Under the pieces are notes generated by a model. That model was given only the letters and a program-made list of their open reading frames with translations. It was not told the DNA's origin and did not search any database. Shown here in pieces: positions 44,411-64,000 of a stretch of DNA of 64,000 nucleotides (position 1 is its first letter; each line of letters starts with the position of its first letter). The DNA lies in the NCBI GenBank assembly GCA_015232395.1, contig JADFZT010000013.1, positions 1,147 through 65,146 of the forward strand, written 5' to 3'. A program made the position numbers and the translations under genes. Source of the stretch: Magnetococcales bacterium (GTDB lineage: Bacteria; Pseudomonadota; Magnetococcia; Magnetococcales; JADFZT01).

Positions 44411-44425
44411 GACCCATCCTTTCTC

Positions 44426-44671: not shown

Positions 44672-44907
44672 GGTTTTTATCCTTTTTTTTGTCTGGTGAG
44701 GACGTCTCGGCCCTCTGGAGGTGGTCGGCATGGACAAAAAATTATATCTCTCCATGGAACCATCGGGCTAATTTACACCTCTATACGGTATAAGAGTTTC
44801 AGGAGGTTCTAAAGTTCCAGACCGGGAGAGGGAACGCATGATCTGAAGAGATTATAAAAGATGGGGGGGGTGGCGCATCACCAGGTTTGAGCAACAGAGG
44901 ATGATCT

Positions 44908-45444
44908 ATGAACGCCAACATCCTGATATTGGGTATCGGAAACCCCCTCTTGACCGATGACGGCATCGGCCTGCTCGCCATCTCACATCTGCGTGAAAAA
45001 CTCTCTTCCTTGCCAAACATCGTCCCGGTGGATGTGGGGATTCCCTCCTTCCAACACCTGGACGCCATCACCCGCACCGACCATCTGATTGTGGTCGATG
45101 CCGCACTGTTCAATGCCCCGCCGGGAACCATTCGTGTTTTGACCGGGGCTGCCATGGATCACATCCTTCACAGCGGAAAACGCAGCGCCCATGAGGTGGG
45201 TATGGGCGATCTTCTGGATATGGCGCGTTTGTTGGGAAAACATCCCCAAAAACGCGCCCTCGTCTGTATACAGATCGGCGATCTGGCTTGGGGCGACGCC
45301 CCAACCCCGGAAGTGGTCGCCGCTCTGCCCCAAGCGGCTCAAACCGTTTGGTCCCTGGCTAAAGCGTGGTCGGCTGGGGGCCTCTCTCCCGCAATGAAGG
45401 AGTCGACTCATGGCCAAACTTCCAACAGTGGGGAGCGCCTTTGA
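44908..45444 (+). CDS. [NiFe] hydrogenase maturation endopeptidase (HyaD/HupD/HoxM family)
   Basis: ILILGIGNPLLTDDGIG...VVDA...H N-terminal pattern typical of the family. Directly upstream of, and overlapping, the small-subunit gene. Confidence 0.85.
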   Translation: MNANILILGIGNPLLTDDGIGLLAISHLREKLSSLPNIVPVDVGIPSFQHLDAITRTDHLIVVDAALFNAPPGTIRVLTGAAMDHILHSGKRSAHEVGMGDLLDMARLLGKHPQKRALVCIQIGDLAWGDAPTPEVVAALPQAAQTVWSLAKAWSAGGLSPAMKESTHGQTSNSGERL

Positions 45445-46501
45445 TTCCCTGGGGGTGACCCGCCGGGAACTGCTGCGTTTCAGCGCGACGGCAGCAGCTC
45501 TGCTGGCCTTGCCCACCACCAGCGTGACAGCCCTGGCCGATGCCCTGGTGCGGGCAAGGCGGCCTTCGGTCATTTGGCTCTCGTTTCAGGAGTGTACCGG
45601 CTGTACCGAATCCCTGACCCGGGCCCATGCACCGACCATCGAGGAGCTGATTTTACAGCTGATCTCCCTGGACTATCACCACACCCTGCAGGCCGCCTCC
45701 GGCCAAGCGGCGGAAGAGGCCCGCAAGGCCGCGATGGCGGAAAATTTTGGCCGCTATATCCTGGTGGTGGATGGTGCCCTGCCCCTCGATCATCCCGAAT
45801 ATTCCACCATCGCCGGGATCGACAACCGGACGATGCTGGAGGAGAGCGCCAAAGGGGCCGCTGCGGTGATTGCGGTGGGGAGCTGTGCTTCCTTTGGCGG
45901 ACTCCCGGCTGCCCAGCCCAATCCCACCGGGGCGGTGCCAGTCAGCGCCATTGTGACGGACAAGCCTCTGCTTCACCTGCCGGGCTGCCCTCCCATTCCT
46001 GCTGTGATCAGTGCGGTGGTGGCCCACTTTTTGACCTTCAGCACCCTGCCCGAACTGGATGGCCAACTGCGCCCGAAAGCCTTCTATGGCGAAACCATCC
46101 ACGACCGCTGCTATCGGCGTCCCTTTTATGACCAGGGTCTCTTTGCTGAATCATTCGATGACGAAGGAGCGCGCCAGGGATGGTGCCTGTTTAAGCTGGG
46201 TTGCAAAGGCCCCACCACCTACAACGCCTGCGCCACCCTGCGCTGGAATCATGGCACCAGCTTTCCCATCCAGTCGGGGCACGGCTGCCTGGGTTGCTCC
46301 GAAGCCAGGTTTTGGGATGCCGGAGATTTTTATAAGCCGATCTCCACCCCCATCGAACCGGTGGATCAGGTCATGCGGGCAGCGGCTGTGGGTGGGGCCG
46401 GGGTAGGGGGGGCGTTGATTGGAAACAATCTCAGGCAGCGTCGCCAGGCGGAAAAAGCGCACCAACCGGTAGGGATCGATGATCTGGAGAAAGAGTCATG
46501 A
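45410..46501 (+). CDS. hynS: [NiFe] hydrogenase small subunit (Tat-exported, Isp-type operon)
   Basis: Twin-arginine leader (VTRRELLRFSATAAALLALP). Proximal cluster motif ECTGCTES, and medial/distal Cys/His ligands (CPPIP, HDRCYRR, GCKGP, GHGCLGC). Confidence 0.9.
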   Translation: MAKLPTVGSAFDSLGVTRRELLRFSATAAALLALPTTSVTALADALVRARRPSVIWLSFQECTGCTESLTRAHAPTIEELILQLISLDYHHTLQAASGQAAEEARKAAMAENFGRYILVVDGALPLDHPEYSTIAGIDNRTMLEESAKGAAAVIAVGSCASFGGLPAAQPNPTGAVPVSAIVTDKPLLHLPGCPPIPAVISAVVAHFLTFSTLPELDGQLRPKAFYGETIHDRCYRRPFYDQGLFAESFDDEGARQGWCLFKLGCKGPTTYNACATLRWNHGTSFPIQSGHGCLGCSEARFWDAGDFYKPISTPIEPVDQVMRAAAVGGAGVGGALIGNNLRQRRQAEKAHQPVGIDDLEKES

Positions 46502-47166
46502 ACGCCCTGCCGATGGATCTACTGTTATGGGCCCGGGGGCCGGGCATGACCCTGGCTCTGGTCATCCTGGTTGGTGGTTTGGTGGTGCGTCTGTTGGAAA
46601 CCATCAGCATGGGCCATCGGGGGTGTTTGGCCCCCCCTGTCACCAATGGCAGCGCCTCCTCCGGGGTTACCACCCTCTGGCGGCGTTTTGGCGTGCCCCC
46701 CGGCATGCTCAAGCGAGCGCCGATCACCTATCTGGGAGGCTATCTGTTTCACGTTGGGTTGTTGATCACGATTTTTCTGTTCGTTCCCCACATCGCTTTT
46801 TTCAAGGAGGTGATCGGCCTCTCCTGGCCCGGGTTGCCCAACCTGTGGATCGACCTTGCCACCATCGCTGCCTTGGCGGGGATGATCATGCTGTTGGCCG
46901 ACCGTTTGATCCATCCGGTCAAGCGGTTTCTCTCTACCTTTGAGGATTATCTGGTCTGGACCCTGACTTTTTTGCCACTGCTGACAGGCTATCTGGCCTT
47001 TCACCACCAGGGGTTGGCCTATGAGACCATGTTGGCGCTTCATCTGCTGGCGGTGGAAGCGCTGCTGGTGGCGCTGCCCTTCACCAAGCTCATCCATGCC
47101 ATCACCGCCTTTGGGGCCCGTTGGTATACGGGAACCTGGTTTGGCAGAAAGGGGATTGCGTCATGA
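46498..47166 (+). CDS. isp1: Isp1: NarI/DsrM/HmeC-like dihaem cytochrome b membrane subunit
   Basis: 222 aa, five TM helices with conserved His. Sits between the hydrogenase small- and large-subunit genes, as in hynS-isp1-isp2-hynL operons. Confidence 0.75.
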   Translation: MNALPMDLLLWARGPGMTLALVILVGGLVVRLLETISMGHRGCLAPPVTNGSASSGVTTLWRRFGVPPGMLKRAPITYLGGYLFHVGLLITIFLFVPHIAFFKEVIGLSWPGLPNLWIDLATIAALAGMIMLLADRLIHPVKRFLSTFEDYLVWTLTFLPLLTGYLAFHHQGLAYETMLALHLLAVEALLVALPFTKLIHAITAFGARWYTGTWFGRKGIAS

Positions 47167-48446
47167 GCGCCACCTTTGCAAAAGGGCTGAACGCCTTCCG
47201 AACCTTTTTGGATGCGCCAGCCGCCACCTTTTTTTCCAGCTGTGTCCATTGCGGCCTGTGTGCCGAAAGCTGCCTCTTTTATACCGAAACCCAGGATCCC
47301 AAATATGCCCCGGTCCACAAGCTGGAGCCCTTGCGGCGTCTTTGGCAACAGGAGTTTACCCTCCTGGGGCGGCTCGGCAAGCTGCTGGGGCTGTTGAAAC
47401 CCCTCCGGGATCAGGATTTGGCAGCCTGGAGCGCGTTGGTTTTTGATTCCTGCACCATGTGCGGACGCTGCTCCCTGGTCTGCCCGGTGGGGATTGATCT
47501 GGTCTATCTGATTCGCCGCATGCGTGAGGGGATGGCGGCGGCTGGGCATGCGCCGTCGTCTCTGGTGGAGGCGACCCGGCGCAACGTTCGCCTGGGCAGC
47601 GCCATGGGGGTTTCCATCGAGACCCTTCAGGCCCAGATCAAACACCAGGAAGCAGCGTGCGGCCTGAAGATTCCCCTGGATCGGGAAAAGGCCGATGTGT
47701 TGATGCTGCTCTCCTCCATGGAGATCGTGCAGTTTCCGGAGATTATTGGCGCGGTGGCGCACATTTTTCATCAGGCCGGGGTCTCCTGGACCTTCTCTTC
47801 CAAGGCGTTTGAGGCCACCAACAGCGGCATCCAGATCGGGGTGCCGGATATCGCCCGCCAGATCGTTTTGCGTACGGTCGAGGAGGCCGAGCGCCTGGGG
47901 GTCACCACGGTGATTGCCCCGGAGTGTGGCCATGGCTTCCGCGCCCTGCGCTGGGAGGGGCCGGACCTGATCGGCAGGCCCTACCGCTTCCGGGTTTTGC
48001 ATCTGCTGGAAATGCTCGATGAGCTGCAACGGGATGGACGCCTGCCCTTGGGGCGTGGGGAAAAGGATCCGCGCCCCCTGACCTACCACGACCCTTGCCA
48101 GATCGCCCGCCGGGGAGGGGTGGTGAAACAGCCCCGGCGTCTCCTGGCCCGGATCGCTACTGATTTTCGGGAGATGGATGACAGCGGCCAATGGAATTGG
48201 TGTTGCGGCGGTGGGGGCGGGGTGAGCGCCGTGGAGCGGGCAGAACCCCTGCGCGCCAAGGCTTTCGGGCGCAAAAAAGAGCAGATCGAGGCGTTGGGGG
48301 TCCACACCCTGGTCACCGCTTGCGCCAACTGTCGAACCATCATCGAAGAGGATCTGGAAGCCTGTGATATGGAGGTGGAGGTGGTTGGGTTGACGGAAAT
48401 GGTCGCCCAGCATCTGCAAGAGACCACGGAAGACCAGATCGCCTGA
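47163..48446 (+). CDS. isp2: Isp2: DsrK/HmeD/HdrD-like Fe-S heterodisulfide-reductase-type subunit
   Basis: Two ferredoxin-type motifs (CVHCGLCAESC, CTMCGRCSLVCP). Two CCG-domain signatures (PECGHG; CCGGGGG...CANC). ATGA start/stop coupling with isp1 at 47163-47166. Confidence 0.8.
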   Translation: MSATFAKGLNAFRTFLDAPAATFFSSCVHCGLCAESCLFYTETQDPKYAPVHKLEPLRRLWQQEFTLLGRLGKLLGLLKPLRDQDLAAWSALVFDSCTMCGRCSLVCPVGIDLVYLIRRMREGMAAAGHAPSSLVEATRRNVRLGSAMGVSIETLQAQIKHQEAACGLKIPLDREKADVLMLLSSMEIVQFPEIIGAVAHIFHQAGVSWTFSSKAFEATNSGIQIGVPDIARQIVLRTVEEAERLGVTTVIAPECGHGFRALRWEGPDLIGRPYRFRVLHLLEMLDELQRDGRLPLGRGEKDPRPLTYHDPCQIARRGGVVKQPRRLLARIATDFREMDDSGQWNWCCGGGGGVSAVERAEPLRAKAFGRKKEQIEALGVHTLVTACANCRTIIEEDLEACDMEVEVVGLTEMVAQHLQETTEDQIA

Positions 48447-48458
48447 GGGAGAACCGTC

Positions 48459-50189
48459 ATGAATAAACGTATTGTCGTCGATCCCGTTACCCGCATTGAG
48501 GGTCACCTGCGCATCGAAGCGCAACTGGAGGGGCAGCGCATTCAACACGCCTACTCCTCGGGCACCATGGTGCGGGGGATCGAAATTATCCTCAAAGGGC
48601 GGGATCCCCGGGATGCCTGGGCTTTTACCCAACGGATCTGTGGCGTCTGCACCCTGGTACATGCCATCGCCTCGGTGCGGGCTGTGGAAAACGCCCTGGC
48701 CATCACCATCCCCCCCAACGCCCAGCTGATCCGCAACCTGATGATCGCGGCGCAATATGTCCACGATCATGTGATGCATTTTTACCATCTCCACGCCCTG
48801 GATTGGGTGGATGTGGTCTCCGCCCTCAAGGCCGACCCCAAGGCTACCTCGGAATTGGCGCAATCGGTAGGCTCTTACCATAAATCCTCCCCAGCCTATT
48901 TTGCCGAGACCGCCAAAACCCTCAAAACCTTTGTCGAAGGGGGGCAGCTGGGCATCTTTGCCAACGGCTACTGGGGCCATCCGGGATATCGGTTGCCGCC
49001 GGAGGCCAATCTGATGGCGGTGGCCCACTATCTGGAAGCACTTGAGTGGCAGCGGGACGTGGCGCGCCTGCACGCCATTGTCGGCGGCAAAAATCCCCAT
49101 CCCAATTTTGTGGTGGGGGGGGTGCCCTGTGCCATCGGTCTGGAATCCGGGGGGCAGTCTGGAACCACGCTCGATATGGCGGGGCTGGGGGAGATCAACG
49201 CCATTATTGGTCGCTTGCGGGCCTTTGTGGATCAGGTCTATCTCCCCGATACTCTGGCCATCGCCGGGTTTTACAAAGATTGGTCCAAGCAAGGGGAGGG
49301 GGTGGGTAATTTTCTCTGTTACGGCGATTTTCCGGAAAAGGGCATGAGCGATCCCGCTTCGTTCCTCTTTCCTTCCGGGGCCATTCTCGACCGGGATCTC
49401 AGCACGGTCCATCCCATCGACCTCAACGACCCCGAGCAGATCCGCGAATTCGTTTCCCGCTCCTGGTATCGCTATCAGGAGGGCAAGGGGGCGGGGCTGC
49501 ACCCCTATGCCGGTGAGACTGCCTTTGACTATGACGGCCCCAAACCCCCCTATGAACATCTCGATGTGGATGGATCCTACTCCTGGCTCAAGGCGCCCCG
49601 CTGGCGGGGACGGCCCATGGAGGTGGGACCTCTGGCCCGGGTGCTGCTGCTCTATGCCAAGGGCCACGAACCGACTCGGGCCCTGGCGGCAAGCGCCTTA
49701 AAGCAGCTCGATCTACCCCTGGCAGGACTCTTTTCCACCCTGGGTCGCACCGCTGCCCGAACCCTGGAAACCAAGATTGTCGCCGATACCCTGCCCACCT
49801 GGTATGATCAGCTTATGGCCAATATTCGTGCCGGTGACACACGCACCTTCAACAACGAAAAATGGCAACCCGACACCTGGCCGAATCAGGCCCGGGGGGT
49901 GGGATTCATGGAAGCGCCCCGAGGTGGGCTGGCCCACTGGATTGTGATCAAGGAGGGGCGTATCGACAACTATCAGGCGGTGGTTCCCAGCACCTGGAAT
50001 GCCGGTCCCAGGGATTCGTCAGGACAGCCCGGTCCCTACGAGGCGGCTCTGGAGGGTCACCACTTGCACAACCCGGATCAGCCCCTGGAAATTTTGCGCA
50101 CCATCCACAGCTTTGATCCCTGCATCGCCTGTGCGGTACATGTGCTGGACCCGGAAGGCAAAGAGCGCATTCGGGTGCGGATACGTTAA
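48459..50189 (+). CDS. hynL: [NiFe] hydrogenase large subunit
   Basis: N-terminal RIEGH and RICGVC motifs, and C-terminal DPCIACAVH followed by a 15-aa extension that is the protease substrate. Confidence 0.95.
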   Translation: MNKRIVVDPVTRIEGHLRIEAQLEGQRIQHAYSSGTMVRGIEIILKGRDPRDAWAFTQRICGVCTLVHAIASVRAVENALAITIPPNAQLIRNLMIAAQYVHDHVMHFYHLHALDWVDVVSALKADPKATSELAQSVGSYHKSSPAYFAETAKTLKTFVEGGQLGIFANGYWGHPGYRLPPEANLMAVAHYLEALEWQRDVARLHAIVGGKNPHPNFVVGGVPCAIGLESGGQSGTTLDMAGLGEINAIIGRLRAFVDQVYLPDTLAIAGFYKDWSKQGEGVGNFLCYGDFPEKGMSDPASFLFPSGAILDRDLSTVHPIDLNDPEQIREFVSRSWYRYQEGKGAGLHPYAGETAFDYDGPKPPYEHLDVDGSYSWLKAPRWRGRPMEVGPLARVLLLYAKGHEPTRALAASALKQLDLPLAGLFSTLGRTAARTLETKIVADTLPTWYDQLMANIRAGDTRTFNNEKWQPDTWPNQARGVGFMEAPRGGLAHWIVIKEGRIDNYQAVVPSTWNAGPRDSSGQPGPYEAALEGHHLHNPDQPLEILRTIHSFDPCIACAVHVLDPEGKERIRVRIR

Positions 50190-51392: not shown

Positions 51393-54224
51393 ATGGATGA
51401 TCTGGTTAATATATTAATTGTTGATGATTCCCAAGACGATGCTGAACTGCTCGCGTTGGATATTGCCAGTAATGGTCTCAACATTCATTGGATACGCGTT
51501 GACAGTGAAATAGATTTGACCACTGCTTTGGCAGAGCAGGAATGGCATGTTGTGATATGCGATGTTCATATGCCTGCTCTGACCCCGGAACAAGCTCTTG
51601 GTATTGCACATAAAAATGGAAATGACATTCCAGTCATTATTGTTTCTGGGGTAGTGCAAGAGTCCGAAGCTATTAAACTATTCATGTTTGGAGCCAAAGA
51701 TTTTTTTTCAAAGGATAATCTTGTTCGATTGCCGATGGCTATTCGGCGTGAAATGATTGAACATAAATCCCGTAAAGCCAGGCTTTTGGCAGAGCGACGT
51801 CTACAATTGAGAGAATCTCACCTGCGAGCTATTCTCGATAATTCTCTGGATGCCATTATCACAATCGATCAAGAAGGTCTTGTCACAGAATTCAACCCCA
51901 CAGCTGAGCTGATTTTTGGGTATTCCAAAGAAAAAGTGATGGGTCGGAATGTGGCTGATATCATCATTCCATCTGAATCACGTTCAGCGCATTCAAAGGC
52001 TTTTTTCTCGCATTTAAGTCAGATGAAGAACAAAGAGGTGATCAAGCGTCGGATGGAGGTTGTCGGGGAGTGTGCCGATGGAAAAAAAGTTGATCTTGAA
52101 GTCGTCTTGGTTTCTACAAATAAAGATGGAAAAATCAACTGCACTGCTTTTCTTCATGACATAAGCGACCGCAAGCAATTGATCAAATCTTTGCAGGAGA
52201 CCTTGGAGGTTGCAGAGTCCGCAAACAGGGCCAAAAGTGAATTTTTAGCCAATATCAGCCATGAAATCCGCACCCCCATGAATACCATCATTGGTATGAC
52301 TGATTTGGTGTTGAACACCTCGCTCTCCCAGGAAGAACAACGGGGTAACCTTGAAATTGTCCTGAAATCGGCGGACACCCTTTTGGAGTTGATTAACAGT
52401 ATTCTGGATCTCTCCAAGATTGAATCCGGCAAGCTTCTCTTGGAGGAAATATCCTTTGATCTCAGTGGTCAAATCGGCAATGTCTGCGAAACCCTGGCCA
52501 TCAAAGCCCATGAGAAAAATCTGGAGCTTTATTTTCAGGTGGACGACAACATTGCGGAGACTCTGGTTGGGGATCCTCTGCGGCTAAAACAGGTGATCGC
52601 AAACCTTGCAAATAATGCCATCAAATTTACCAAAACCGGTGAGATCGTGGTTCGGGTGGAGCGAGAGACAACGTCTGGCTCAGTCACAGATGAGATGGCT
52701 GGCAGTCAGGATATCAAGCTCCATTTTTCCGTTTCCGATACTGGCATTGGCATTCCCAAGGATAAGATTTCCCGGGTTTTTGAAAGCTTCGTCCAGGCAG
52801 ATGGTTCTACCACTCGGGAGTTTGGGGGAACTGGTCTGGGACTGGCTATTTCCAAACATCTGGTCAAGATGATGGGTGGGGAGTTGTGGGCTGAAAGCGA
52901 GGTCGGCAAAGGCAGTGTATTCCATTTCACCGCCTGTTTTGCGATAGGCCATCGGGGAGGTGCCCACTATTCCCGGCGATCCATCCCCCCTGCCATGGGT
53001 AAAATGGTGGTGGATACGGTGCTTTCCGGGATGCGCGTACTCATTGCAGATTGCAATGAAACGAGCCGGACCATTTTACGAGGCATGTTGGTCGGATTCG
53101 GCGCCATATCCCGGGAGGTGGCAACAGGCTGTGCGCTGGTTGAAGCGCTGCAAGAAGCAGAAGAAAGTCATTCAACCTGGGATCTGATCCTCCTGGATTT
53201 TCGTCTCTTGGAAGAAGATCCCCCAGACCCGGTCGTCATGGATGGTTTTCTGGATTATCGAGGTAAGGTTTTGGTGATGTTGCCCACGAACATCGGCATT
53301 GAGTCCTATTCCGAGATCGGTTGGTTGCACAGAACCCCCTATTTGAAAAAACCGGTACGCAAATTCAAGCTGTTGAAAGCTGTAAACCGCATGATGGCTA
53401 TGGAGGCAACAGAGGAGAAGAGTGAGTCGGAAATTTTCATCCAGGCCAAGCGTACCACCAAACCTCTAAAAATCCTCCTGGTGGAGGATGAAATCAACAA
53501 TCAAAAATTGGCAACGGCCATTCTCGAACATGTAGGCCATGATGTCACCATCGCTAATCATGGTAGAGAGGCATTGCGCTCTATGGAAAAATTTTCCTAT
53601 GACTTGGTCTTGATGGATCTTCAAATGCCAATCATGGATGGTTTGGAAACCACGCATCATATTCGTGCAGCCTCTTCTTTTCATGTCAAAGATCCCAAGG
53701 TGCCCATCCTTGTCCTTTCTGCAAGGACCCTGTCCGAAGAGGAGCAGCAATATATCCAAACCAGTATGAATGGCTATTTGCGGAAACCTTATCGGGCTCA
53801 GGAATTGTTGAGTGCTGTTGAACCCTTTGCCAGAAAGGATAAAATTGTAAAGAAGCCAGAAAAACCAAAACAAAGCGTCATCATTTTAAAGCCGACAGAG
53901 GTGGATCCGGTTGTTTACAAAGAAAGAAGGTGTGCCTTTTTGGACCACTCGCAATCTCATGTAGTCAACGTGAAAAAGGCTCTGGATAAGCGTAACCAGC
54001 GTCTGGCTCTGAGATCAATCATGTGGCTTGAGAGCGCCGCCATTGAAGTTGGCGCTATTCGGGTGGAAGTGGAAGCGATACGCTTCCGGGGTAAGTTGGA
54101 GGTGGAAGATTGGGAGGCGTGCTGCAACATTTTTCACAGGCTTGAACTGAATGTACTTCAGATTGTCGAGGTTCTCACGCAAAATGAAACACAACCCTTG
54201 AAGCCTATAACCCATCAACCATGA
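51393..54224 (+). CDS. Hybrid two-component protein (REC-PAS-HisKA-HATPase-pseudoREC-REC-Hpt-like)
   Basis: N-terminal receiver (ILIVDDSQDD...CDVHMPAL), PAS, H-box [15 protein letters not shown], HATPase boxes ([29 protein letters not shown]), and receiver ILLVEDEINN...DLQMPIMDG. AT-richer than the flanking DNA. Confidence 0.9.
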   Translation: MDDLVNILIVDDSQDDAELLALDIASNGLNIHWIRVDSEIDLTTALAEQEWHVVICDVHMPALTPEQALGIAHKNGNDIPVIIVSGVVQESEAIKLFMFGAKDFFSKDNLVRLPMAIRREMIEHKSRKARLLAERRLQLRESHLRAILDNSLDAIITIDQEGLVTEFNPTAELIFGYSKEKVMGRNVADIIIPSESRSAHSKAFFSHLSQMKNKEVIKRRMEVVGECADGKKVDLEVVLVSTNKDGKINCTAFLHDISDRKQLIKSLQETLEVAESANRAKSEFLANISHEIRTPMNTIIGMTDLVLNTSLSQEEQRGNLEIVLKSADTLLELINSILDLSKIESGKLLLEEISFDLSGQIGNVCETLAIKAHEKNLELYFQVDDNIAETLVGDPLRLKQVIANLANNAIKFTKTGEIVVRVERETTSGSVTDEMAGSQDIKLHFSVSDTGIGIPKDKISRVFESFVQADGSTTREFGGTGLGLAISKHLVKMMGGELWAESEVGKGSVFHFTACFAIGHRGGAHYSRRSIPPAMGKMVVDTVLSGMRVLIADCNETSRTILRGMLVGFGAISREVATGCALVEALQEAEESHSTWDLILLDFRLLEEDPPDPVVMDGFLDYRGKVLVMLPTNIGIESYSEIGWLHRTPYLKKPVRKFKLLKAVNRMMAMEATEEKSESEIFIQAKRTTKPLKILLVEDEINNQKLATAILEHVGHDVTIANHGREALRSMEKFSYDLVLMDLQMPIMDGLETTHHIRAASSFHVKDPKVPILVLSARTLSEEEQQYIQTSMNGYLRKPYRAQELLSAVEPFARKDKIVKKPEKPKQSVIILKPTEVDPVVYKERRCAFLDHSQSHVVNVKKALDKRNQRLALRSIMWLESAAIEVGAIRVEVEAIRFRGKLEVEDWEACCNIFHRLELNVLQIVEVLTQNETQPLKPITHQP

Positions 54225-55329
54225 AAAACAGGCACACCTGTCCAAAGCAGGTTCTCAAAGATGCTCCCTCCCGTTGAAACGGGTGATCCTTTCTGAAATA
54301 TGGTTTTTATTGAAATGTCAGGATTTTGTTTGTTTCATCCTCATTGTGGTCAGATTGTTTTTTTCTCTCCCGTTATTCTGGAATGTCAGTCCTACAGATG
54401 ATATGGCAGTCTGAGCCGCTGTAGAGTTCCGGTGACGTGATTTTTTTGACTCTTTGTGGGACCGATAAACATATAAAAAAATATAATCGCATTGAAAAAG
54501 TTGCTGTTTTTGTTGAAGGCATGAATTTTGCATTACCATGTCCGATAACAAGCGAATATAGGACAGCAAACAAAATGGGAGAAGATGATCATGAAGAGAT
54601 TCTTTATTGAAATCGTAGAGAACGGCTACGGCATTTTTGACGCCACCAATCAATCTTTTGTGTTTGATGGGATTTTGGACTGGTGTGTTGCCTGTGAGCT
54701 TCACGAAATGTTGTCAGGGGAAGTGACAGCCTCACGATGTTTATAAATAATTTTCCAATCATACTCTATCAAATGGGTTGGGAAGCAACGCAAAATCCCA
54801 ATGGTACCGTCGCCAACAAATTGTCTGTGGTGGCTGTGGTTATATCGTTGATAGGGATTAACGTGCTTGCTATAGCCCTTCCCCTCATAACGTTCTTGTG
54901 AGAACAAGGAGAGGCCTTCTGAAATCACATGCCTACCCTCGAAAATCGGTGGTGGGCATCGATATTTACCTGGGAATCGATGAACTACGTTGCAGAAAAA
55001 ATGTCTAATAATTTAACGAAGGGACAAGCAGGCGGCGCTATGGCATTCCTCCCAAACCAGGATCCTGGTGCAGCTCTCCCCCGTGACTGCCCAGGAAAAT
55101 GATAGACGCATAGCCGCTTGTCCCTTCCCAAATTTCCCCTCCTGAAAGCTCTTTTCTCGAACGCGAGAGCATCCAGAAAAAATTCCCAGGTGTAACCCCC
55201 CCCCGTGATGCCCCAGCCTGATCATCCTAAATCGTCGATCGCGCAGAAGCCGATTTTCAGCCAGCCTGCTGTTTTTCTCTCCACGTTTTGAAGTTCTGTT
55301 CCTTCGTCCACTCTCCATGCCTTTGATGC

Positions 55330-55740
55330 AATCAAGCAGCAAAGAGAGGTAACTGAAAGGAAAGGCGGGCTGATGTCTGCTTGGCAAGTGCCAGAATCCA
55401 GGCAAAAAGAAGCCGGAGCTTCCTCAGGACGGCGCGCAGATTGTAGCCGATCCCGGCCAGTAACGTATTGGCCTTGTCGCCGAACACACCTTGTGGAAAG
55501 TTCCGATTCAACCGGCCTTCGACCTTTTGGTGTCCGATGACCGCTTCCATGGTGCTTTGTCGACGAAGTTTCTTCTTGAGTGTTGGCGTTACACCACGGC
55601 GCTAACCGGAAATAAAAACCTGGGAATCGGTGACGCCGCGCCCTTTGTATCCACGGTCCACGTAACACCGTTTCGGTTTTTTTCCGACCAGCCGCTCAAT
55701 CTGACTCAGCGCGCCGGAAAGTGTGTGAGTTTGGAGGATA
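55330..55740 (-). pseudogene. IS5-family transposase C-terminal remnant (frameshifted)
   Basis: Peptides LSQIERLVGKKPKRCYVDRGYKGRG and MEAVIGHQKVEGRLNRNFPQGVFGDKANTLLAGIGYNLRAVLRKL match the IS5 DDE C-terminal region, but lie in two frames with no N-terminal half. Confidence 0.65.
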
Positions 55741-55850
55741 AAAAGCAGGGGGCTTTTTATCCTCTGAAATGGTGGACGGATGTTTATAAAAATGAAATAA
55801 AAACAACGAATTCTGAGTTTTAAGCAGGACAGGGGATCATGTTTGCCGAT
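55741..55850. repeat. Copy 1 of a ~110-bp diverged direct repeat (partner at 61186-61295)
   Basis: AAAAGCAGGGGGCTTTTTATCCTCTGAAATGGTGGACGGATGTTTATAAAAATGAAATAAAAACAACGAATTCTGAGTT aligns with AAAAGCAGGGGGTTTTTCATTCTCTGAAATAGTAGACGAGTATTGGTGAAAAGAAAATATAAAACAACGAACACGGAGTT. By eye ~75-80% identity. Confidence 0.7.
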
Positions 55851-56163
55851 ATGCAAAACGCGTAACGCCATATCCGGATACGACCTCGTTGGAAAAAAAA
55901 CAGCCATCGACAGCCATCCCTCTTTTCCTCACAGGCTCAAAAAGCGAAAAACCTTTTTTTCCACATCTGATGTCCATCTATTTCCGCTGGTACCAAGAGG
56001 CCATCGTCATCCTGGTCCAGCATGTGGGAGGCGAATTTTTTTGTTTCCGAATAAAATCAAAGGGAACAGGCCAATCCTGTAACCGGCCCCATTTTGCCCT
56101 GTCTTGATAGCCGCTTTGAACCCCTATTGGCACGCCGTCAAATCGGACCGTCAGATATGCAGG

Positions 56164-57798
56164 CTAAACCGCTTTATTGGCTATTTGGAAAAGGTGGTGT
56201 TCCAGATCCTGACCGATGTTGTTCAGCGTCATAATATCCGTTTCACAGCGGGAGATGATCCGCATGAGAGCATGCTCCTGCTCATCGCTGAGGCCGATAC
56301 CCAGGTGGTTGAAGGACTCCTCGATTTCCCACACCATTTTGGAAAAACGCTCGACACTGAGATCCCGGACGGTCGTCTGTTTGTTGCGGACGTCGACCAC
56401 GGCCTTCTCCAGGGAGTCGAGAAGGGAGGAGAGGCTCTTCTCCCGCTGGGCGAGTTGCAGAGTGGTTTGAAGTGCTGCGGAACGGGCATTGGCGCTGACG
56501 ATCAAGGTGGCGAGAATATCTTTCAGGCGGCCAAAGCTTTCCTCATCCTGTTCCACCAGATCGTGGACAAGAATCAAAACCCGCTCAGAGGTGAAAAGGG
56601 TGCTTTTACCCACGATCATGATCCGGTCATGGGCGTCGATTTCCTCCAACACAGCCTGTTCCCCCGGACGTAACGGTGACTCACGGGTATGGATCGCAAC
56701 AGCCCTGTCTTGGATCAGACCCACCACCCCCTCCAGGCCCAACCCCTCCAGAGTAATGAATATCTCATTCGCCAGAGCGGCGTCATCCGGGCAAAGATAG
56801 CTGTCCTGGAGGAAACGCAGCACCTCCCCCAACTCCCCTGAGGTGGTCATGGCGCTGAGGGCCACCTGTTGGGCCATCTGGACCTCATCCTGCAGGCGTT
56901 GTTGGGCCTGCTGGCTCTCTTTGGTCTGGTTTTGCAGAAGCAAGGCAAGTGTTTTTTCCCGTTCGGCGAGTTTCAAACGGGTTTGCAGCGCCGCGACCCG
57001 GGCATCCACGCTTTCGACCATCATGGCGAGAATATCCTTGAGGCGGCCGAAGGTTTCTTGATCCTCCACGGGCATGTCCTGGACCAGGATCAGTGTCCGT
57101 TCGGCGGTAAAAAGGGTGCTCTTGCCAACAGTCATGATGCGTCTGTTGGCGTAGATGTTTTTCAGAATCATCATCTCCAGCGAGGGGAGAAAGGAGGTGG
57201 TGTGTCTTGAGGTTTCCGGATTTTCCCCGGCCAGGCGGATCAGACCCTTTAATCCCAATTGATTCAGGGTGTTGACCACCAGCTCTGCCAGGCTGTGATG
57301 ATCGTTGCAGGCATAACTGTCCTGGAGGAACCGGAGCACCTCACCCATCTCTCCCGAGGTGGTCATGGCGCTCATGGCAACTTCGTTGGCCTGAAGTGCG
57401 TCATGTTTCAGCTGATCATAGAGGCTTTTGTTTTTCAGAGTGAGTTGTATCTTGGCGTGGAGCTCCTCGGAATGGATCGGCTTGGTCAGATAGCCTTCCC
57501 CTCCGGCGTGATAGCAGGCGACACGTTCTTCCAGGGAGGCCTGAGGGGAGAGAAAAATAACAGGAATGCGGGGGAGGTTTTCATCGGCGCTCAGTTGTTG
57601 AAAAAGCGCCAACCCCTCCATGTCGGGAAGATGGACTGCCAGCAGGATCAGGTCGGGTGGGGTTTGGGAGACCCTTTCGAGGCATTCACGTCCGTCTGCC
57701 ATACAGTGGATCGTATAGGTTTCCCGTAACTCCTTTTGAAGGAATTCCTGGCATTTTACATCCCCATCCACGGCGTAGATCAGAGTCCGGTCATCCAT
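56164..57798 (-). CDS. Response regulator: N-terminal REC, two tandem copies of an unassigned ~172-aa module, and a ~75-aa tail
   Basis: REC (LILLAVHLPDMEGL, VIFLSPQ, LTKP). Internal duplication is seen at protein level (AMSAMTTSGEMGEVLRFLQDSY / ALSAMTTSGELGEVLRFLQDSY; FGRLKDILA twice) and at DNA level with a 516-bp offset. Confidence 0.8.
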   Translation of the reverse strand: MDDRTLIYAVDGDVKCQEFLQKELRETYTIHCMADGRECLERVSQTPPDLILLAVHLPDMEGLALFQQLSADENLPRIPVIFLSPQASLEERVACYHAGGEGYLTKPIHSEELHAKIQLTLKNKSLYDQLKHDALQANEVAMSAMTTSGEMGEVLRFLQDSYACNDHHSLAELVVNTLNQLGLKGLIRLAGENPETSRHTTSFLPSLEMMILKNIYANRRIMTVGKSTLFTAERTLILVQDMPVEDQETFGRLKDILAMMVESVDARVAALQTRLKLAEREKTLALLLQNQTKESQQAQQRLQDEVQMAQQVALSAMTTSGELGEVLRFLQDSYLCPDDAALANEIFITLEGLGLEGVVGLIQDRAVAIHTRESPLRPGEQAVLEEIDAHDRIMIVGKSTLFTSERVLILVHDLVEQDEESFGRLKDILATLIVSANARSAALQTTLQLAQREKSLSSLLDSLEKAVVDVRNKQTTVRDLSVERFSKMVWEIEESFNHLGIGLSDEQEHALMRIISRCETDIMTLNNIGQDLEHHLFQIANKAV

Positions 57799-57811
57799 GA
57801 TTCACCACCTG

Positions 57812-58260: not shown

Positions 58261-58416
58261 ACCAAGTGGGGAGTGGGGGGGATGGTTGAGAGGAATGGAA
58301 ACCGCAATGTCCAAATTGTAAAATGGCCCGTCAGTATTTACGAAATATTTTTGGGGGGATGGCTGCATGTTTTTCCAAGGCATGGAAATCAAGAGAAACA
58401 AGCGGTATCGAGAGCC

Positions 58417-60639
58417 GTGATTCTTTACCTTTGTGAAAAACCGTCCCAGGGGCGCGATATTGGCCGTGTCCTGGGTGCCACGTCTCGGCGGGAAGGGTAC
58501 GTTGAGGGGCGTGGGGTCTGTGTGACCTGGTGCATTGGTCATCTGCTGGAAATGACCGAACCGGACCGGTACCGACCGGAATGGAAGCAGTGGCGGTTGG
58601 ACACGCTCCCCATGGTCCCTGAAAAATGGAAGCTGGAGTTGACCCGCCGGGGCGGCAAGCAGTTTAAAGTCATCAAAGAACTGTTGCAGGGGGCGAACGA
58701 GGTGGTGTTGGCCACCGATGCCGACCGGGAGGGCGAGACCATCGGGCGTGAGGTTTTGGAGCGATGCCGGTATCGGGGGAAGATCTCTCGTCTTTGGCTG
58801 TCGGCGCTGGATGATGCCAGTATCCGTAAAGCTCTCTCCTCCCTTTGGCCCGGAGAGAAAACCGAACCCCTGTATCAGGCGGGAATGGGGCGCGCCCGTG
58901 CGGATTGGTTGGTCGGCATGAATCTCACCCGTGCCTACACGATCATTGGCCGCCAGGGCGGTTATGATGGCGTGCTGAGCGTTGGCCGTGTCCAGACACC
59001 CACATTAAAGCTGGTGGTGGACCGTGACCGGCTGATCGAAAATTTTAAGCCGGTGGACTATTTTGATGTCATTGCCTTCCACCGCGTGGCCAACGGCCCA
59101 TTCAATGCCAAGTGGATCCCATCGAAAAAACACGCCGATGGCGAAGGGCGCTGCCTGGATCGTGGGATTGCAGAGGCGGTTATCCAGAAAGTCCAAGGGC
59201 AGATCGGCAAGGTAACCCGGGCAGAGACCAAGCGGGTAAAAGAGCCTCCGCCATTGCCCCTTGAACTCTCCACCCTGCAGCAGGAGGCCTCCCGCCGTTG
59301 GAGTATGAGCGCCAAGAGAACCCTCGAAGTTGCTCAGTCCCTATACGAAAAGCACAAGGCCGTCACCTATCCTCGAACGGACTGCCGGTATCTGCCCACT
59401 GAGCAATTCAAGGATGCACCAAAGATTCTTCAGGCCGTTGCGGGCAATGATCCCGGGATGGCCCGGTTGGTCCATATGGCCAACCCCCAAATTCGCTCCA
59501 AAGCCTGGAACGACAAGAAGGTCACGGCCCACCACGCCATCATCCCCACCGCTGCCAAGGTGAACGTTGAGAGGTTGAGTCGAGAGGAGTCCTTCATCTA
59601 CGACCTGATCCGCCGCCACTATCTGGCGCAGTTTTTCTCCCCTCACGAATATGATGCGACTGTCATCGACACCCTGGTTAATTCAGAGTCCTTCCGGGCA
59701 TCTGGCCGTGTTGAACAGGCCCCTGGATGGAAACAAGCGCTGGGCCAGCCAAAAAAAGAGCAGGCCACCGAGGGTAAAGAGGAGGGTCAGAGTCTCCCTC
59801 GTGTCCGAACAGGAGAAGATGCCGGGATTGAAAAAGCTGAATTGATGGCAAAGCAGACCAAGCCCCCCAATCGCTATACGGAAGGCACGCTGATTCAGGC
59901 GATGAAATCGGTGGGCAAACTCGTGGAAGACTCCCGGCTACGCAAAATTTTGCGGGACACATCGGGTATCGGTACAGAGGCGACCCGGGCCTCCATTATC
60001 GAGACCCTCATCAAACGGGAACTCCTCGCCAAGGAAGGGAAGAAAAACCTTTTAAGCATGCCCGCAGGGCGAGCACTGGTCGATGCCTTGCCGCACAGTG
60101 TGACCGATCCAGCCACCACAGCGGTCTGGGAGCAAACCCTGGATGACATTTCCAACGGCAGTGGATCCCTGGGTGAGTTTTTGGACAAGTCCGAGTTGTG
60201 GCTGAACAAGCTGATCGGCAATGTCAAAAAGCGCCAGGAAATGGGGATCAATCCTTTTCAAAACCTCCCCGATCTACCCATATCCGGAACCCGCCGCAGA
60301 GGGCGTGGTCGTCCAACATCAAGAGGTGCGGCTCAGCGACCAGCCGCGATGCCGGATCCTTCACGGCCTTGTCCGGATTGCAGCAAGCCCATGGTCCGAA
60401 GAAAGAGCAAGCGCGGCTGGTTTTGGGGATGCTCCGCTTATCCCTCCTGTTCAACGACGATGCCGGATGTTCCAGGACGCAACACGTCGAGCAGTGCAGC
60501 CACTGGGCCAACTTGCCCCAAATGCCACAAGGGCCATCTGATTGAGAGGAGTGCACAGAAGGGAAAAAATTCTGGCAATCGATTCCTCGGATGCAGCCAA
60601 TATCCATCCTGTCGACATACCCGCCATATTGGAAGTTGA
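58417..60639 (+). CDS. topB: DNA topoisomerase III with two C-terminal C4 zinc ribbons
   Basis: TOPRIM (LCEKPSQGRDIG, ATDADREGE). TWCIGHLLE, SVGRVQTPTL, active-site context YPRTDCRYL. Zn ribbons CPDCSKP...CSAYPSC and CPKCHKG...CSQYPSC. A GTG at 58417 gives the canonical short N-terminus. The longest ORF starts at 58273, inside the IS6 remnant. Confidence 0.9.
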   Translation: MILYLCEKPSQGRDIGRVLGATSRREGYVEGRGVCVTWCIGHLLEMTEPDRYRPEWKQWRLDTLPMVPEKWKLELTRRGGKQFKVIKELLQGANEVVLATDADREGETIGREVLERCRYRGKISRLWLSALDDASIRKALSSLWPGEKTEPLYQAGMGRARADWLVGMNLTRAYTIIGRQGGYDGVLSVGRVQTPTLKLVVDRDRLIENFKPVDYFDVIAFHRVANGPFNAKWIPSKKHADGEGRCLDRGIAEAVIQKVQGQIGKVTRAETKRVKEPPPLPLELSTLQQEASRRWSMSAKRTLEVAQSLYEKHKAVTYPRTDCRYLPTEQFKDAPKILQAVAGNDPGMARLVHMANPQIRSKAWNDKKVTAHHAIIPTAAKVNVERLSREESFIYDLIRRHYLAQFFSPHEYDATVIDTLVNSESFRASGRVEQAPGWKQALGQPKKEQATEGKEEGQSLPRVRTGEDAGIEKAELMAKQTKPPNRYTEGTLIQAMKSVGKLVEDSRLRKILRDTSGIGTEATRASIIETLIKRELLAKEGKKNLLSMPAGRALVDALPHSVTDPATTAVWEQTLDDISNGSGSLGEFLDKSELWLNKLIGNVKKRQEMGINPFQNLPDLPISGTRRRGRGRPTSRGAAQRPAAMPDPSRPCPDCSKPMVRRKSKRGWFWGCSAYPSCSTTMPDVPGRNTSSSAATGPTCPKCHKGHLIERSAQKGKNSGNRFLGCSQYPSCRHTRHIGS

Positions 60640-61295: not shown

Positions 61296-61558
61296 GTTTT
61301 TCTGGACCATGATGATTGCATGACTTATGATGGATCCCGGATTTGAAACAACTGGATAAGCGACACTTCGTCCTCAGACACCCCCTTCAACGCGCCTTCA
61401 ACCCTCCCGGAGTTCGAACAGTTGGTCCTGCCCCTGACCTGATTTGGACAGCTTGGGACCATAAACGATAAAAAGGTGGCCTCAACCCAAGATCAGCGGC
61501 TACAGATTTTTTAGTAATTAGTATTCTTATGTATTGAGTTCCAGATTATTTGTTTACT

Positions 61559-64000
61559 GTGGAGCTGTCTGTTTTGACAAAACAAAATTTTGAACCCTTC
61601 TACCACTACTGGTCAAAAGCCCGGGAAGAGGGGGTGCATCTCTTCCCTTACCACGCCCTGGATGCGGCAGCCGTAGGACGTCTCCTGGTGGAAGCGTTGC
61701 CCCGTTGGTCCCAAACCCTGGCGCAACTTTCGGGCCTATCCCTGGAGAGGCTGCCGGACTGGATCTCTTTCCTCTTTTCCATCCACGACCTGGGTAAGCT
61801 TTCTTCCCACTGCTTCCAGAACAAAGTCCCCGACGCCTATCTCCGCCTCACCTCAAAACCGCCCCCCCCAGCGCCAGGATTCGTGCCGCGCCATGATTTT
61901 CTGGGCTGGTATCTCTGGAATGAGATACCGTTTCCAAACAGGCAAAAAGGCTTGGTGGAAGCGTGGCTGGCGCCGATGGCGGATGCCAAAAAGGCAGATC
62001 TGGAAGATTTGATCAGTCTAATGAATCCCTGGGTGCTGCCCATTTTCGGCCATCATGGCCTGCCACCCCGTGAAGCCAACACCGCCGATTCTTCCCTGTG
62101 GCAGACGCGTGATCGGGATGTGGCGCTGGCTTTTGTCCAGGCCATGGCCCAGCGGTTTTTGCCGGATGGATTGCCCTTTGATTCGGATGCACTCCACTTC
62201 GACGATAACCTGGACCGCTTTAAACACGCCTCCTGGCTTTTGGCCGGGGGTATGGTGATGGCGGACTGGCTGGGTTCCAACAGCCGCTGGTTTTCCCCCA
62301 CCGACCAACCCATGGCGTTGGATCACTATTGGCATGGGATCGCCCTGCCCAACGCCAAAACAGCCCTGGAACAGAGCGGCCTGATACCCGCCATCTCCAG
62401 ACCGGCCCAGGGTCTGGTTGGGCTCTATCCCGGATTGACGACGCCCTCACCCATGCAGCAGGCGGTGGAGGCGCTCTCTCTGACGGATGCGCCACTGCTG
62501 GCGATACTCGAAGATGTGACCGGTGGCGGCAAGACCGAAGCGGCCATCGTGTTGGCCCAACGTATCATGGCTCAGGGGCGTGCTGACGGGATCTATTTTG
62601 CCCTGCCCACCATGACCACCGCCAACGCCATACATGCCCGTGTGCAGCCCATTGTCCATAAATTCTATGAACAGGACGGCCCAAAACCGGTCATTTTACT
62701 CACCCACGGCAAAAGCCACCTCTACGAAGAAAAGCTCACCAAAGCCGCCCCCCCACCCGGCGAGGAGGAGTCCCAGGCCCAGGCCAATCTCTGGCTGCGA
62801 GACAGCCGCAAAAAGGGATTGCTGGCCCATGTGGGTGTTGGGACGTTGGATCAGGCCCTCATGGGAATTTTGCCTCTGAAGCATCAATCCCTACGCCTTT
62901 TGGGGCTCGCCAACAAGGTGCTGATCGTCGATGAGGTCCACGCCTGCGATCAATATCTCCTGGAATTGCTGCAACGTCTGTTGGCGTTTCACGCGGCCCA
63001 TGGGGGGAGCGCCATTTTGCTGTCAGCCACCCTGCCCCGGGGAATGCGCGCCGAGTTGATCGAAGCCTTTGCCAGGGGGCGAAGCCTTGCCGAAGGCCGG
63101 GATCAAAACAGACCGGATTCACCCCCTCAAAACACCAGCTATCCCCTGCTCACCACCTCTCTGGGCGGAGCCCTCATCGAGGAGCCGGTCGCTTGCCAGG
63201 AAAGGCTGCACCATCGCGTTGAATGCGTCTCTCTGGATACCGAAGCAGCGGTTTTCGATCACCTGACCCATGCCGCAGAGGCGGGGGGGTGCGCTTGCTG
63301 GATCCGCAATAGCGTCGATGATGCCAGAGAGGCCTATTCAGCGCTTCGGCAGCGGTTGGGGGGGGATCGGGTGCATCTGTTTCACGCCCGCTTTGCTCTG
63401 GCCGATCGCATGGATATCGAACAGCGAATTCTCACCCGTTTCGGCAAGGATTCGACCCTGGACAATAGGCGGGGACAGGTGGTGGTGGCCACCCAGGTGG
63501 TGGAGCAGTCGTTGGATATCGATTTTGACGCCATGGTGAGCGATCTGGCCCCGGCGGATCTGTTGATTCAGAGAGCGGGCCGCCTGCAACGCCATGAAAG
63601 GGGTGTGCGTCCCGGGGGGCTTGTGAAGCGGCTGGGGGTGTTGATGCCGAGCCTGGAGGAGCCGGTGGATGAGGGGTGGTATGCCCGGCTTTTTCCCCGG
63701 GGCGCTTATGTCTATCCCCACCATGGCCGTCTCTATCTCACCGCTTGGTGGCTCTCCAAAAACGGTGGCTTTTCCATCCCTGGCGATGCCCGGGACTGGA
63801 TCGAATCGGTTTATGGCGAAGCTTCCCAGGCGCACATTCCGGAAGCGTTGATCGCGGCGCAAATCAAGGCTGAAGGCGCAGACATGTCGGCAAAATCCTT
63901 GGCCAAGCTAAACGCCATCTCATTCAAGACCGGTTATCAGTCCGGCAATGGCTGGCGTGATGATGCACATCCCCCCACCCGTTTGGGAGAGCCGACGTTG
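61559..64000 (+). CDS. cas3: CRISPR-associated nuclease/helicase Cas3 (N-terminal HD domain plus DEAH helicase), 5' 814 codons; continues beyond the right window edge
   Basis: Own translation. HD-domain motifs (FPYHALDAAAVGRLL, IHDLGKLSSHCFQ, GHHG). Helicase motif I EDVTGGGKTEAA, motif II LIVDEVHACD, later ATQVVEQSLDIDFD and QRAGRLQRH. No in-frame ATG near the 5' end; GTG 61559 or TTG 61550/61574 are the start candidates. Absent from the ORF track because it runs off the edge. Confidence 0.85.
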   Translation, partial: MELSVLTKQNFEPFYHYWSKAREEGVHLFPYHALDAAAVGRLLVEALPRWSQTLAQLSGLSLERLPDWISFLFSIHDLGKLSSHCFQNKVPDAYLRLTSKPPPPAPGFVPRHDFLGWYLWNEIPFPNRQKGLVEAWLAPMADAKKADLEDLISLMNPWVLPIFGHHGLPPREANTADSSLWQTRDRDVALAFVQAMAQRFLPDGLPFDSDALHFDDNLDRFKHASWLLAGGMVMADWLGSNSRWFSPTDQPMALDHYWHGIALPNAKTALEQSGLIPAISRPAQGLVGLYPGLTTPSPMQQAVEALSLTDAPLLAILEDVTGGGKTEAAIVLAQRIMAQGRADGIYFALPTMTTANAIHARVQPIVHKFYEQDGPKPVILLTHGKSHLYEEKLTKAAPPPGEEESQAQANLWLRDSRKKGLLAHVGVGTLDQALMGILPLKHQSLRLLGLANKVLIVDEVHACDQYLLELLQRLLAFHAAHGGSAILLSATLPRGMRAELIEAFARGRSLAEGRDQNRPDSPPQNTSYPLLTTSLGGALIEEPVACQERLHHRVECVSLDTEAAVFDHLTHAAEAGGCACWIRNSVDDAREAYSALRQRLGGDRVHLFHARFALADRMDIEQRILTRFGKDSTLDNRRGQVVVATQVVEQSLDIDFDAMVSDLAPADLLIQRAGRLQRHERGVRPGGLVKRLGVLMPSLEEPVDEGWYARLFPRGAYVYPHHGRLYLTAWWLSKNGGFSIPGDARDWIESVYGEASQAHIPEALIAAQIKAEGADMSAKSLAKLNAISFKTGYQSGNGWRDDAHPPTRLGEPTL

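Follow-up and report, generated by a model that had tools for sequence, protein, structure and literature searches.

Response regulators in which the receiver (REC) domain is followed by a sensor-type domain, without any catalytic or DNA-binding domain, form a recognized class. The 2018 census of Galperin et al. (PMC5847659) delineated the architectures REC-PAS, REC-GAF, REC-PAS-GAF and REC-(PAS/GAF)-HisKA (for example, AF_1472), predicted that REC-PAS/GAF proteins and REC-PAS/GAF-HisKA proteins lacking HATPase engage in dimerisation and protein-protein contacts, and recorded that no member of this output-less class had been studied. Here we analyze an atypical response regulator of 544 amino acids (aa) encoded at positions 56164..57798, on the minus strand, of a 64,000-nucleotide stretch of a Magnetococcales bacterium genome (contig JADFZT010000013.1 of assembly GCA_015232395.1); this whole stretch is hereafter called the window. 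The protein represents a new sequence family that belongs to the output-less REC-PAS/GAF(-HisKA) class by fold and architecture only, and within this family it is a duplicated variant. The family shares with the class the plan of a receiver followed by a sensor fold, sometimes with a dimerisation hairpin, and the lack of a catalytic or DNA-binding domain. However, the proteins of the census are mostly archaeal and contain recognisable Pfam PAS, GAF and HisKA domains, whereas the family described here is bacterial, is not matched by the PAS, GAF or HisKA models and has motifs of its own, namely, TAMxAM, SELG, SPLE, GRxKD and LGLxExQE.

Among the known structures, the best counterpart is the cyanobacterial REC-GAF dual-sensor histidine kinase (6oap/6oaq/6ob8; Shin et al. 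2019 PNAS, as cited in PMC13269768), with the same succession of a receiver, an alpha5 that runs on into a helix, a GAF-type domain and a C-terminal signalling helix. This kinase is the best Foldseek match for both AlphaFold2 (AF2) models described below, and the two REC domains are similar in sequence as well (E 8e-10). For the full-length model, the top six matches are chains of 6oaq, 6ob8 and 6oap, aligned over ~330 columns that span the whole target (E 1e-11), with the receiver-only matches ranking below them (best, 1.9e-9). The domain orientations differ, with a root-mean-square deviation (rmsd) of 13-14 Å over the full alignment. Furthermore, the kinase possesses a real dimerisation and histidine phosphotransfer (DHp) domain with its His, an ATPase domain and a bilin-binding GAF, whereas the family lacks this His, the ATPase and any GAF sequence signature; its core is smaller, and the module can be present in 1-3 copies.

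Several other systems share parts of this design. In LvrB, a Rec-controlled histidine kinase, REC alpha5 continues into a signalling helix, and the state of the coiled coil transmits phosphorylation (PMC13269768); the arrangement of alpha5 is the same as in the predicted helix 110-161 of the window protein, but LvrB is a Rec-DHp-catalytic domain protein with a phospho-accepting His and without intervening sensor modules. Sensor folds repeated along long helices are also found in the GAF-PHY region of phytochromes, in tandem GAF-A/GAF-B domains and in PAS arrays; in the family, however, chromophore-binding residues are absent, the core is much smaller, and there is no similarity at the sequence level. 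The REC-DUF3369-HD-GYP proteins (bioRxiv 10.1101/2021.11.05.467447) likewise combine a receiver with a divergent GAF-like domain that is missed by GAF models, but the family lacks the HD-GYP domain. A specific relationship with DUF3369 was considered and rejected, given the hhalign probability of 0.2% against the DUF3369 protein encoded in one of the family loci (L006) and the absence of a PF11849 match.

The combination of the Galperin-class architecture with an LvrB-like alpha5 helix leads us to favor a dimeric helical-spine relay, with the tip of a C-terminal hairpin as the effector, as the best explanation of the protein as a whole; we put the probability of this reading at about 0.55.

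A large family with the receiver as its only recognizable domain

The original prediction assigned the region downstream of the receiver to no catalogued output family, and the sequence and profile searches bear this out. In the whole window protein, Pfam and NCBIfam models recognized only REC, which was also the only Pfam match above threshold in 10 and then in 7 other members of the family. Searches of Protein Data Bank (PDB) sequences with phmmer and with profiles retrieved only the receiver, and the sole PADLOC match covers REC residues 7-125, with nothing in the modules; a well-characterised domain was not matched in any of these profile searches. No GAF model scored E<=1 against the window protein or any of 16 further members of the family, and the PAS and Cache profiles gave sub-threshold matches only (dCache_1, E 0.044 in P0010; CHASE4, E 0.022 in one member). 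We found no characterised family member in the literature; the window protein itself is identical to an NCBI entry from a Magnetococcales metagenome-assembled genome (MAG), designated P0001 here, that is titled merely "response regulator".

A word-indexed search found only 8 relatives, and a scan of a genome collection with a tighter alignment only 5 loci. When a profile of the output region was searched exhaustively with HMMER, 1,850 clusters were detected at E<=1e-3, and 710 at the stricter E<=1e-30. Among the 150 matches listed, nearly all are proteins of 365-415 aa that consist of the receiver, one module and the tail. Two further searches added ~280 members in which PF00072 is the sole domain and which are titled "response regulator" or similar, and in the ~390 family sequences seen, there is no extra domain besides REC. 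The named hosts are mostly marine Gammaproteobacteria and Magnetococcales, including Teredinibacter, Halioxenophilus, Agarilytica, Aliikangiella, Alkalimarinus, Ketobacter/Alcanivorax and Aurantivibrio, along with MAGs of Cellvibrionaceae and Pseudomonadales. Thus, ~1,850 clusters, mostly from marine Gammaproteobacteria and bearing generic titles, make up a sizeable share of two-component proteins without a domain model or a proposed function. Placing them among the output-less REC-PAS/GAF proteins is useful because, per the 2018 census (PMC5847659), no member of that class had been studied; it yields a domain definition, signature motifs (the GRxKD junction and the LGLxExQE tip) and likely kinase partners, and among the carriers, Teredinibacter, Aliikangiella, Alkalimarinus and Halioxenophilus are cultivable. 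Proteins with one, two or three modules, and with or without the phospho-acceptor Asp, form a natural series that offers built-in comparisons for the study of helical-spine signalling.

Multi-module proteins are rare, accounting for 4 of the 275 sequences, namely, the window protein, its two 546-aa orthologues, and P0009 (loci L006, 5214-7208, and L007), a 664-aa protein with REC, three modules and the tail, in which the junction motif reads GRLRD. Several apparently "REC-less" stand-alone modules (P0193, P0049, P0131 and others) were set aside as an architecture of their own: most begin mid-helix and look like truncated gene calls. In 74 of the 275 sequences, which form a subfamily of ~396-418 aa (P0007, P0013, P0017, P0025-P0030 and others), an acidic low-complexity linker leads to a C-terminal [DE][VIL][ED]LF, ending in ELF in 54 cases and in DLF in 16. 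This terminus resembles a short peptide for docking or tethering; the window protein does not belong to this subfamily. Some contigs carry two paralogues of the family, as in the cases of P0210/P0270 (129,905 bp) and P0193/P0211 (86,809 bp); another example is the pair MNBD_GAMMA23-1384 and -1395 from a hydrothermal-vent gammaproteobacterium, with locus tags eleven apart.

Two tandem modules from a single duplication

The output region of the window protein consists of two tandem paralogous modules of ~172 aa, as had been proposed from the sequence alone. When the two halves of this region (residues ~130-300 and ~300-544) were compared using BLASTP, 81 of 144 residues were identical (56%), with zero gaps (E 1e-50), and all three peptide pairs that had been put forward in support of the paralogy are present in the protein. 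At the DNA level, two direct repeats of 221 nt, with 70% identity, are located at 56420..56640 (copy A, on the module 2 side) and 56936..57156 (copy B, on the module 1 side); their start-to-start spacing is exactly 516 bp, that is, 172 codons, precisely the offset that had been claimed. The GRLKD junction motif of module 1 (residues 251-255, 57034..57048, minus strand), at the start of the spine helix, is separated by the same 516 bp from that of module 2 (residues 423-427, 56518..56532, minus strand). Accordingly, module 1 spans residues 128-299 (56902..57417, minus strand) and module 2 residues 300-471 (56386..56901, minus strand), with its core at 339-412 followed by a long helix. The internal duplication is real, well past chance expectation. 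A profile search of the six-frame translation of the window revealed no second member of the family.

In the tree of module cores, the module-1 copies of three Magnetococcales proteins, the window protein and its orthologues P0002 and P0003, comprise one clade, and the module-2 copies comprise its sister clade; the single-module Magnetococcales homologue P0004 is the outgroup, and the three modules of P0009 form a separate clade elsewhere. This topology therefore shows a single tandem duplication in the ancestor of the three proteins that has been kept since, rather than to a peculiarity of one strain: the two-module orthologues are 57-58% identical to the window protein overall and 60-62% over the output region. 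The duplicated unit comprises 172 aa, that is, the core together with the spine helix, and the three-module state of P0009 arose independently in another lineage. Between orthologues, module 1 is 68-80% identical and module 2 60-67% (68-72% for module 1 of the window protein versus its orthologues). The dN/dS ratio (nonsynonymous to synonymous substitutions) was mostly uncomputable due to the saturation of synonymous sites, but where computable, it was 0.04-0.15, with 0.15 for module 2, indicative of purifying selection on both copies. Tandem duplication of sensor-fold modules is a common evolutionary theme, and the duplication itself is ordinary domain evolution.

A predicted small sensor fold on a helical spine

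The module, which the original prediction could not place, is predicted to be a small PAS/GAF-like alpha/beta sensor fold that sits on a continuous helical spine. The AF2 model of module 2 with the tail, built on a 105-sequence alignment, has a predicted local distance difference test (pLDDT) score of 93.7 and a predicted template modelling (pTM) score of 0.80, and contains a long helix, a second helix, a beta-beta-alpha-beta-beta-beta core, an 80-residue helix, a loop and a 39-residue return helix. In the full-length model (pLDDT 86.5), module 1 comprises two helices, the same beta-beta-alpha-beta-beta-beta core (residues 167-239) and a linker helix of 71 residues (247-317), with a low-confidence break at 314-320. 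Upstream, REC alpha5 is predicted to run into the N-terminal helix of module 1 as one continuous 52-residue helix (residues 110-161; 57316..57471, minus strand), with a heptad a/d excess (p=0.02). Each copy had been described as ending in a coiled-coil-like linker, with a helical tail to follow: the modelled helices at 247-317, 419-498 and 505-543 fit this description, whereas the coiled-coil part holds to a lesser extent, the heptad periodicity being modest (p 0.01-0.05 in three helices).

A Foldseek search of the PDB with the module model gave no match at E<=1e-3. The leading matches were the GAF/PHY domains of bacteriophytochromes and the REC-GAF dual-sensor kinase (6oap/6ob8), with probabilities of up to 1.0, E ~0.03 and TM-scores of 0.38-0.46; a dCache domain (E 0.05), the HD-GYP protein 4mcw and CodY were also retrieved.

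Across the 105 aligned members, the canonical signature of the module includes TAMxAM...SELG...F in the N-terminal helix, SPLE at helix alpha3, RxxDFGxRTxxN on beta3-beta4, KNMPxDD after beta5, and YGRxKD at the start of the spine helix, where the G and the D are invariant. The Magnetococcales clade that includes the window protein retains the motifs of the helix, the junction and the tip, but most of its beta3-beta5 polar residues differ from the conserved ones, with D96 changed to T/I, R100 to S, N104 to T, K113 to Q/H and N114 to D. In module 2 of the window protein, Pro116 is replaced by Val, a substitution unique among the 105 sequences.

The conserved residues raise the possibility that the modules are true small-molecule sensors, comparable to GAF, PAS and Cache domains, such that the protein would be a ligand receiver in the style of one-component systems, with two sites or cooperativity in the window copy and with an accessory or vestigial receiver. 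The fold class is a classic ligand-binding one, and a conserved charged and polar cluster, consisting of E81, R93, D96, R100, T101, N104, K113 and N114, lies on beta3-beta5 and alpha3. The repeated loss of the phospho-acceptor in the family, as well as in the window protein, and the rapid evolution of REC in the window lineage (both discussed below) fit this possibility too, and so do the weak dCache_1 and CHASE4 matches in two members. However, the core between the spine helices is very small, at ~75 residues; most of the residues that might line a pocket have been substituted in the window clade, and ligand-related neighbours are not conserved. Tentative as it is, we regard ligand sensing as the main rival of the helical-spine relay, with which it is compatible, the two not being mutually exclusive.

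The receiver has lost its phospho-acceptor

The receiver occupies residues 1-120 (57439..57798, minus strand), as defined by PF00072 (residues 8-118, with a score of 72.5 bits where the cutoff is 30.2) and by the beta-alpha pattern of the AF2 model, which superposes on many solved receivers with rmsd of 1.2-2.3 Å in Foldseek. It is not, however, the normal receiver that the original prediction took it to be. The phospho-acceptor position at the end of beta3, which is Asp in 78 of the 88 family members in an alignment with 87 relatives, is Ala54 in the window protein (codon GCA, 57637..57639, minus strand), two changes away from an Asp codon. Furthermore, the acidic pair has Gly12 as its second member (D11-G12-D13), so that one acidic residue is lost as well; Ser84 at the end of beta4 and Lys106-Pro107 at the end of beta5 are retained. 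The closest orthologues, P0002 and P0003, keep the phospho-acceptor Asp.

Because Ala54 replaces the Asp, the window protein cannot be switched by canonical phosphorylation, and phosphotransfer profiling with the adjacent kinase would probably be negative. By its residues, then, it qualifies as a pseudo-receiver uncoupled from phosphorylation. Such pseudo-receivers are a recurrent feature of the family: E, N, G, Q or A stands in place of the Asp on several separate branches, for example, in the P0183/P0270 group, P0026, P0031, P0036, P0041 and P0135. REC evolves faster than the rest of the protein in the window lineage, with dN of 0.50 versus the orthologues, compared to 0.23-0.36 for the modules.

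Linkage to histidine kinases

We surveyed the neighbourhoods of 17 family loci, the window included, and the only recurrent neighbours were histidine kinases. In 8 of these loci, a histidine kinase gene is directly adjacent to the family gene, mostly on the same strand and with the PAS-HisKA-HATPase-REC architecture. In Teredinibacter, Halioxenophilus, Agarilytica and a "Lentisphaeria" MAG, the gene just upstream of the family gene, on the same strand, encodes a PAS-PAS-HisKA-HATPase-REC kinase, and in Aliikangiella this kinase is encoded just downstream; P0009 adjoins a divergent SBP_bac_3-PAS-HisKA-HATPase-REC hybrid kinase, and in two Magnetococcales MAGs, a plain HisKA-HATPase kinase is found upstream. 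Two more loci, those of P0047 and the window, include a kinase within 5 kb that is not adjacent.

In the window, this kinase (51393..54224, plus strand) is convergent with the regulator gene at a distance of 1.9 kb. According to Pfam, it is a REC-PAS-HisKA-HATPase-REC hybrid, with a weak REC-like segment (E 0.018) between HATPase and a good C-terminal REC. Its C-terminal 130 aa match no Pfam domain, and no histidine phosphotransfer (HPt) domain was detected there; a degenerate HPt at the end of the kinase, suspected by eye, was abandoned for want of Pfam support. Possibly, this kinase is a former or current partner of the regulator. The stretch between the two genes (54300-56100) is gene-poor, with short overlapping open reading frames that, by eye, encode transposase-like peptides, e.g. 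"CYVDRGYKGRG" and "GIGYNLRAVLRKLRLL", consistent with remnants of insertion sequences that part the regulator from the hybrid kinase.

Such a separation from the kinase by insertion sequences, combined with the loss of the phospho-acceptor, could mean that the window copy is a decaying, non-functional relic. In line with this, the receiver contains Ala54 and Gly12 and evolves with dN of 0.50, module 2 has drifted at near-invariant positions such as Pro116, and transposase-like debris lies between the regulator and the kinase. Nevertheless, we consider decay to be quite improbable. The reading frame is intact from its ATG start, and the length is that of the orthologues (544 versus 546 aa). The start codon is preceded, at 6 nt, by a Shine-Dalgarno-like AGGTGG (57805..57810, minus strand), and a terminator-like hairpin, identified by a consensus match only, follows ~75 nt past the stop codon (56068..56089, minus strand), such that the gene looks expressible. 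In addition, the modules and the tail are conserved, with 68-72% identity to the orthologues for module 1 and dN/dS of 0.15 for module 2, and pseudo-receivers recur in apparently intact members of the family.

The C-terminal hairpin and the proposed mode of action

The helical tail (residues 472-544; 56167..56385, minus strand) comprises the end of the 80-residue helix, the hairpin loop and the return helix. The tip motif, LGIGLSDEQE in the window protein (residues 499-508; 56275..56304, minus strand), conforms to the family consensus LGLxExQE, in which the Q is present in 99 and the second E in 102 of the 105 members. The pLDDT of the hairpin is 84-94 in the model of module 2 with the tail but just 63-75 in the full-length model. 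In an hhalign comparison of the tail profile with the DHp regions of seven local kinases, the tip motif fell opposite the start of DHp alpha2 ("L[ST]xEQxxYL"), and the kinase H-box fell opposite a His-less stretch of the tail. At every tail position, His is present in at most 20% of the 105 aligned members. With no conserved His and no Pfam match, the idea of a true DHp or HPt domain was rejected; what is left is a weak resemblance of the His-less hairpin to DHp, to be taken as a lead rather than as proof.

By analogy with the REC-GAF dual-sensor kinase and with Rec-controlled kinases, we infer that the protein would be a parallel dimer with a helical spine that relays the state of the receiver and possibly that of the sensor-like modules. 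The signal arriving through the spine would change the geometry or the exposure of the terminal hairpin, the conserved tip of which would bind a partner protein. In canonical members, the input would be phosphorylation by the co-encoded PAS or hybrid histidine kinase, whereas the window copy would have to act constitutively, via its two modules, or by docking.

Several results weigh against this relay. The 80-residue helix has no significant heptad periodicity and no single register, and the polar residues conserved on beta3-beta5 in canonical members (RxxDFGxRTxxN and KNMP) might reflect ligand binding or catalysis rather than a passive relay. For the hairpin, there is no HisKA or Hpt Pfam match to the tails of the family, the hhalign match to DHp is not significant (probability 10%, P 0.003), and a tail-only profile searched against the PDB aligned with EnvZ DHp constructs over the whole hairpin at sub-threshold E-values of 0.17-1.4, all from a single underlying sequence. 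Seven of the 17 loci have no kinase nearby, namely, those of the HDOD-(amt)-RR-miaB-phoH-ybeY subfamily, of three "...ELF" members, which are orphans with unrelated neighbours, and of the two-module orthologue P0002; moreover, no non-kinase neighbour is conserved across the 17 loci.

Two narrower readings concern the hairpin itself. One holds that the family is a hitherto unrecognised class of two-component protein, in which a His-less and kinase-less DHp-like hairpin is the effector and docks onto receivers, such as the REC of the co-encoded hybrid kinase, or onto other partners, the modules provide genuine second inputs, and the window copy is a phosphorylation-independent, two-input version. 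This is doubtful in our estimation, but if it were true, the number of modules (1, 2 or 3) would set how many signals are integrated per helical spine, and the C-terminal [DE][VI]ELF of the ~400-aa subfamily would add a tethering site.

The other reading regards the hairpin as a decoy dock for the REC of the partner hybrid kinase, or for the protein's own REC, that inhibits, insulates or dephosphorylates it; the protein would then be a feedback regulator or phosphatase devoid of kinase activity. The start of DHp alpha2, with which the tip motif aligns, contacts response regulators in kinase-regulator complexes, and known REC phosphatases use an amide together with an acidic residue, for which the near-invariant Gln-Glu at the tip could be a counterpart. 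The frequent adjacency to hybrid kinases with a C-terminal REC and no detected HPt would also make sense under such a scheme. However, the similarity to DHp falls short of significance, the spacing of the Q and the E is unlike that in the phosphatase motifs (DxxxQ, ExxN and E/DxxT/N), and many members are orphans, so that a decoy function seems rather unlikely to us.

Other genes in the window and its relatives

The genomic context given in the original prediction is accurate. A type IA topoisomerase (58273-60639, plus strand) with Toprim, Topoisom_bac and two zinc ribbon domains is encoded divergently from the regulator; in PADLOC, it aligns with the topoisomerase-like portion of the DpdF model (E 2e-106, model positions 23-720 of 1499). 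This gene sits between the regulator and cas3 (61538-64000 and past the end of the window, plus strand), which encodes the Cas3_HD, DEAD and Cas3-like C-terminal domains, and the transposase-like fragments at 54.3-56.1 kb are those recognized by eye, as noted earlier. The regulation of these mobile-element or defence genes by the response regulator, which had been suggested on the grounds of their location, is nevertheless highly improbable. Proximity (the topoisomerase at 58273 and cas3 from 61538) is all that speaks for it, whereas the neighbours of the orthologue P0002 are entirely different (a nucleoside transporter, umuDC and HU) and share no synteny with the window, neither cas nor topoisomerase genes occur at any of the remaining 16 loci of the family, and PADLOC matches only the REC part of the protein, which has no DNA-binding domain. 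For the window, the analysis thus removes the defence link and flags the protein as a pseudo-receiver.

In the loci of the single-module Magnetococcales homologue P0004 (L001, 9748-16579, and L009, 4892-7750), the family gene adjoins a NACHT-TPR gene, a neighbour that is kept in two MAGs and is absent from the other family loci; L001 also contains a pair of AAA_15/AAA_21 and DUF4276 genes. Like the NACHT-TPR gene, this pair is defence-like, and apart from these genes, defence-type neighbours were not seen at the 16 loci outside the window. Elsewhere in the window, a hydrogenase cluster (38740-50189) encodes an HypE-like protein, HypF, a maturation protease, the small and large subunits of a NiFe hydrogenase, and Fe-S/CCG and cytochrome-b-like subunits; its GC content is 0.60-0.66, compared to 0.47-0.54 in the flanks.

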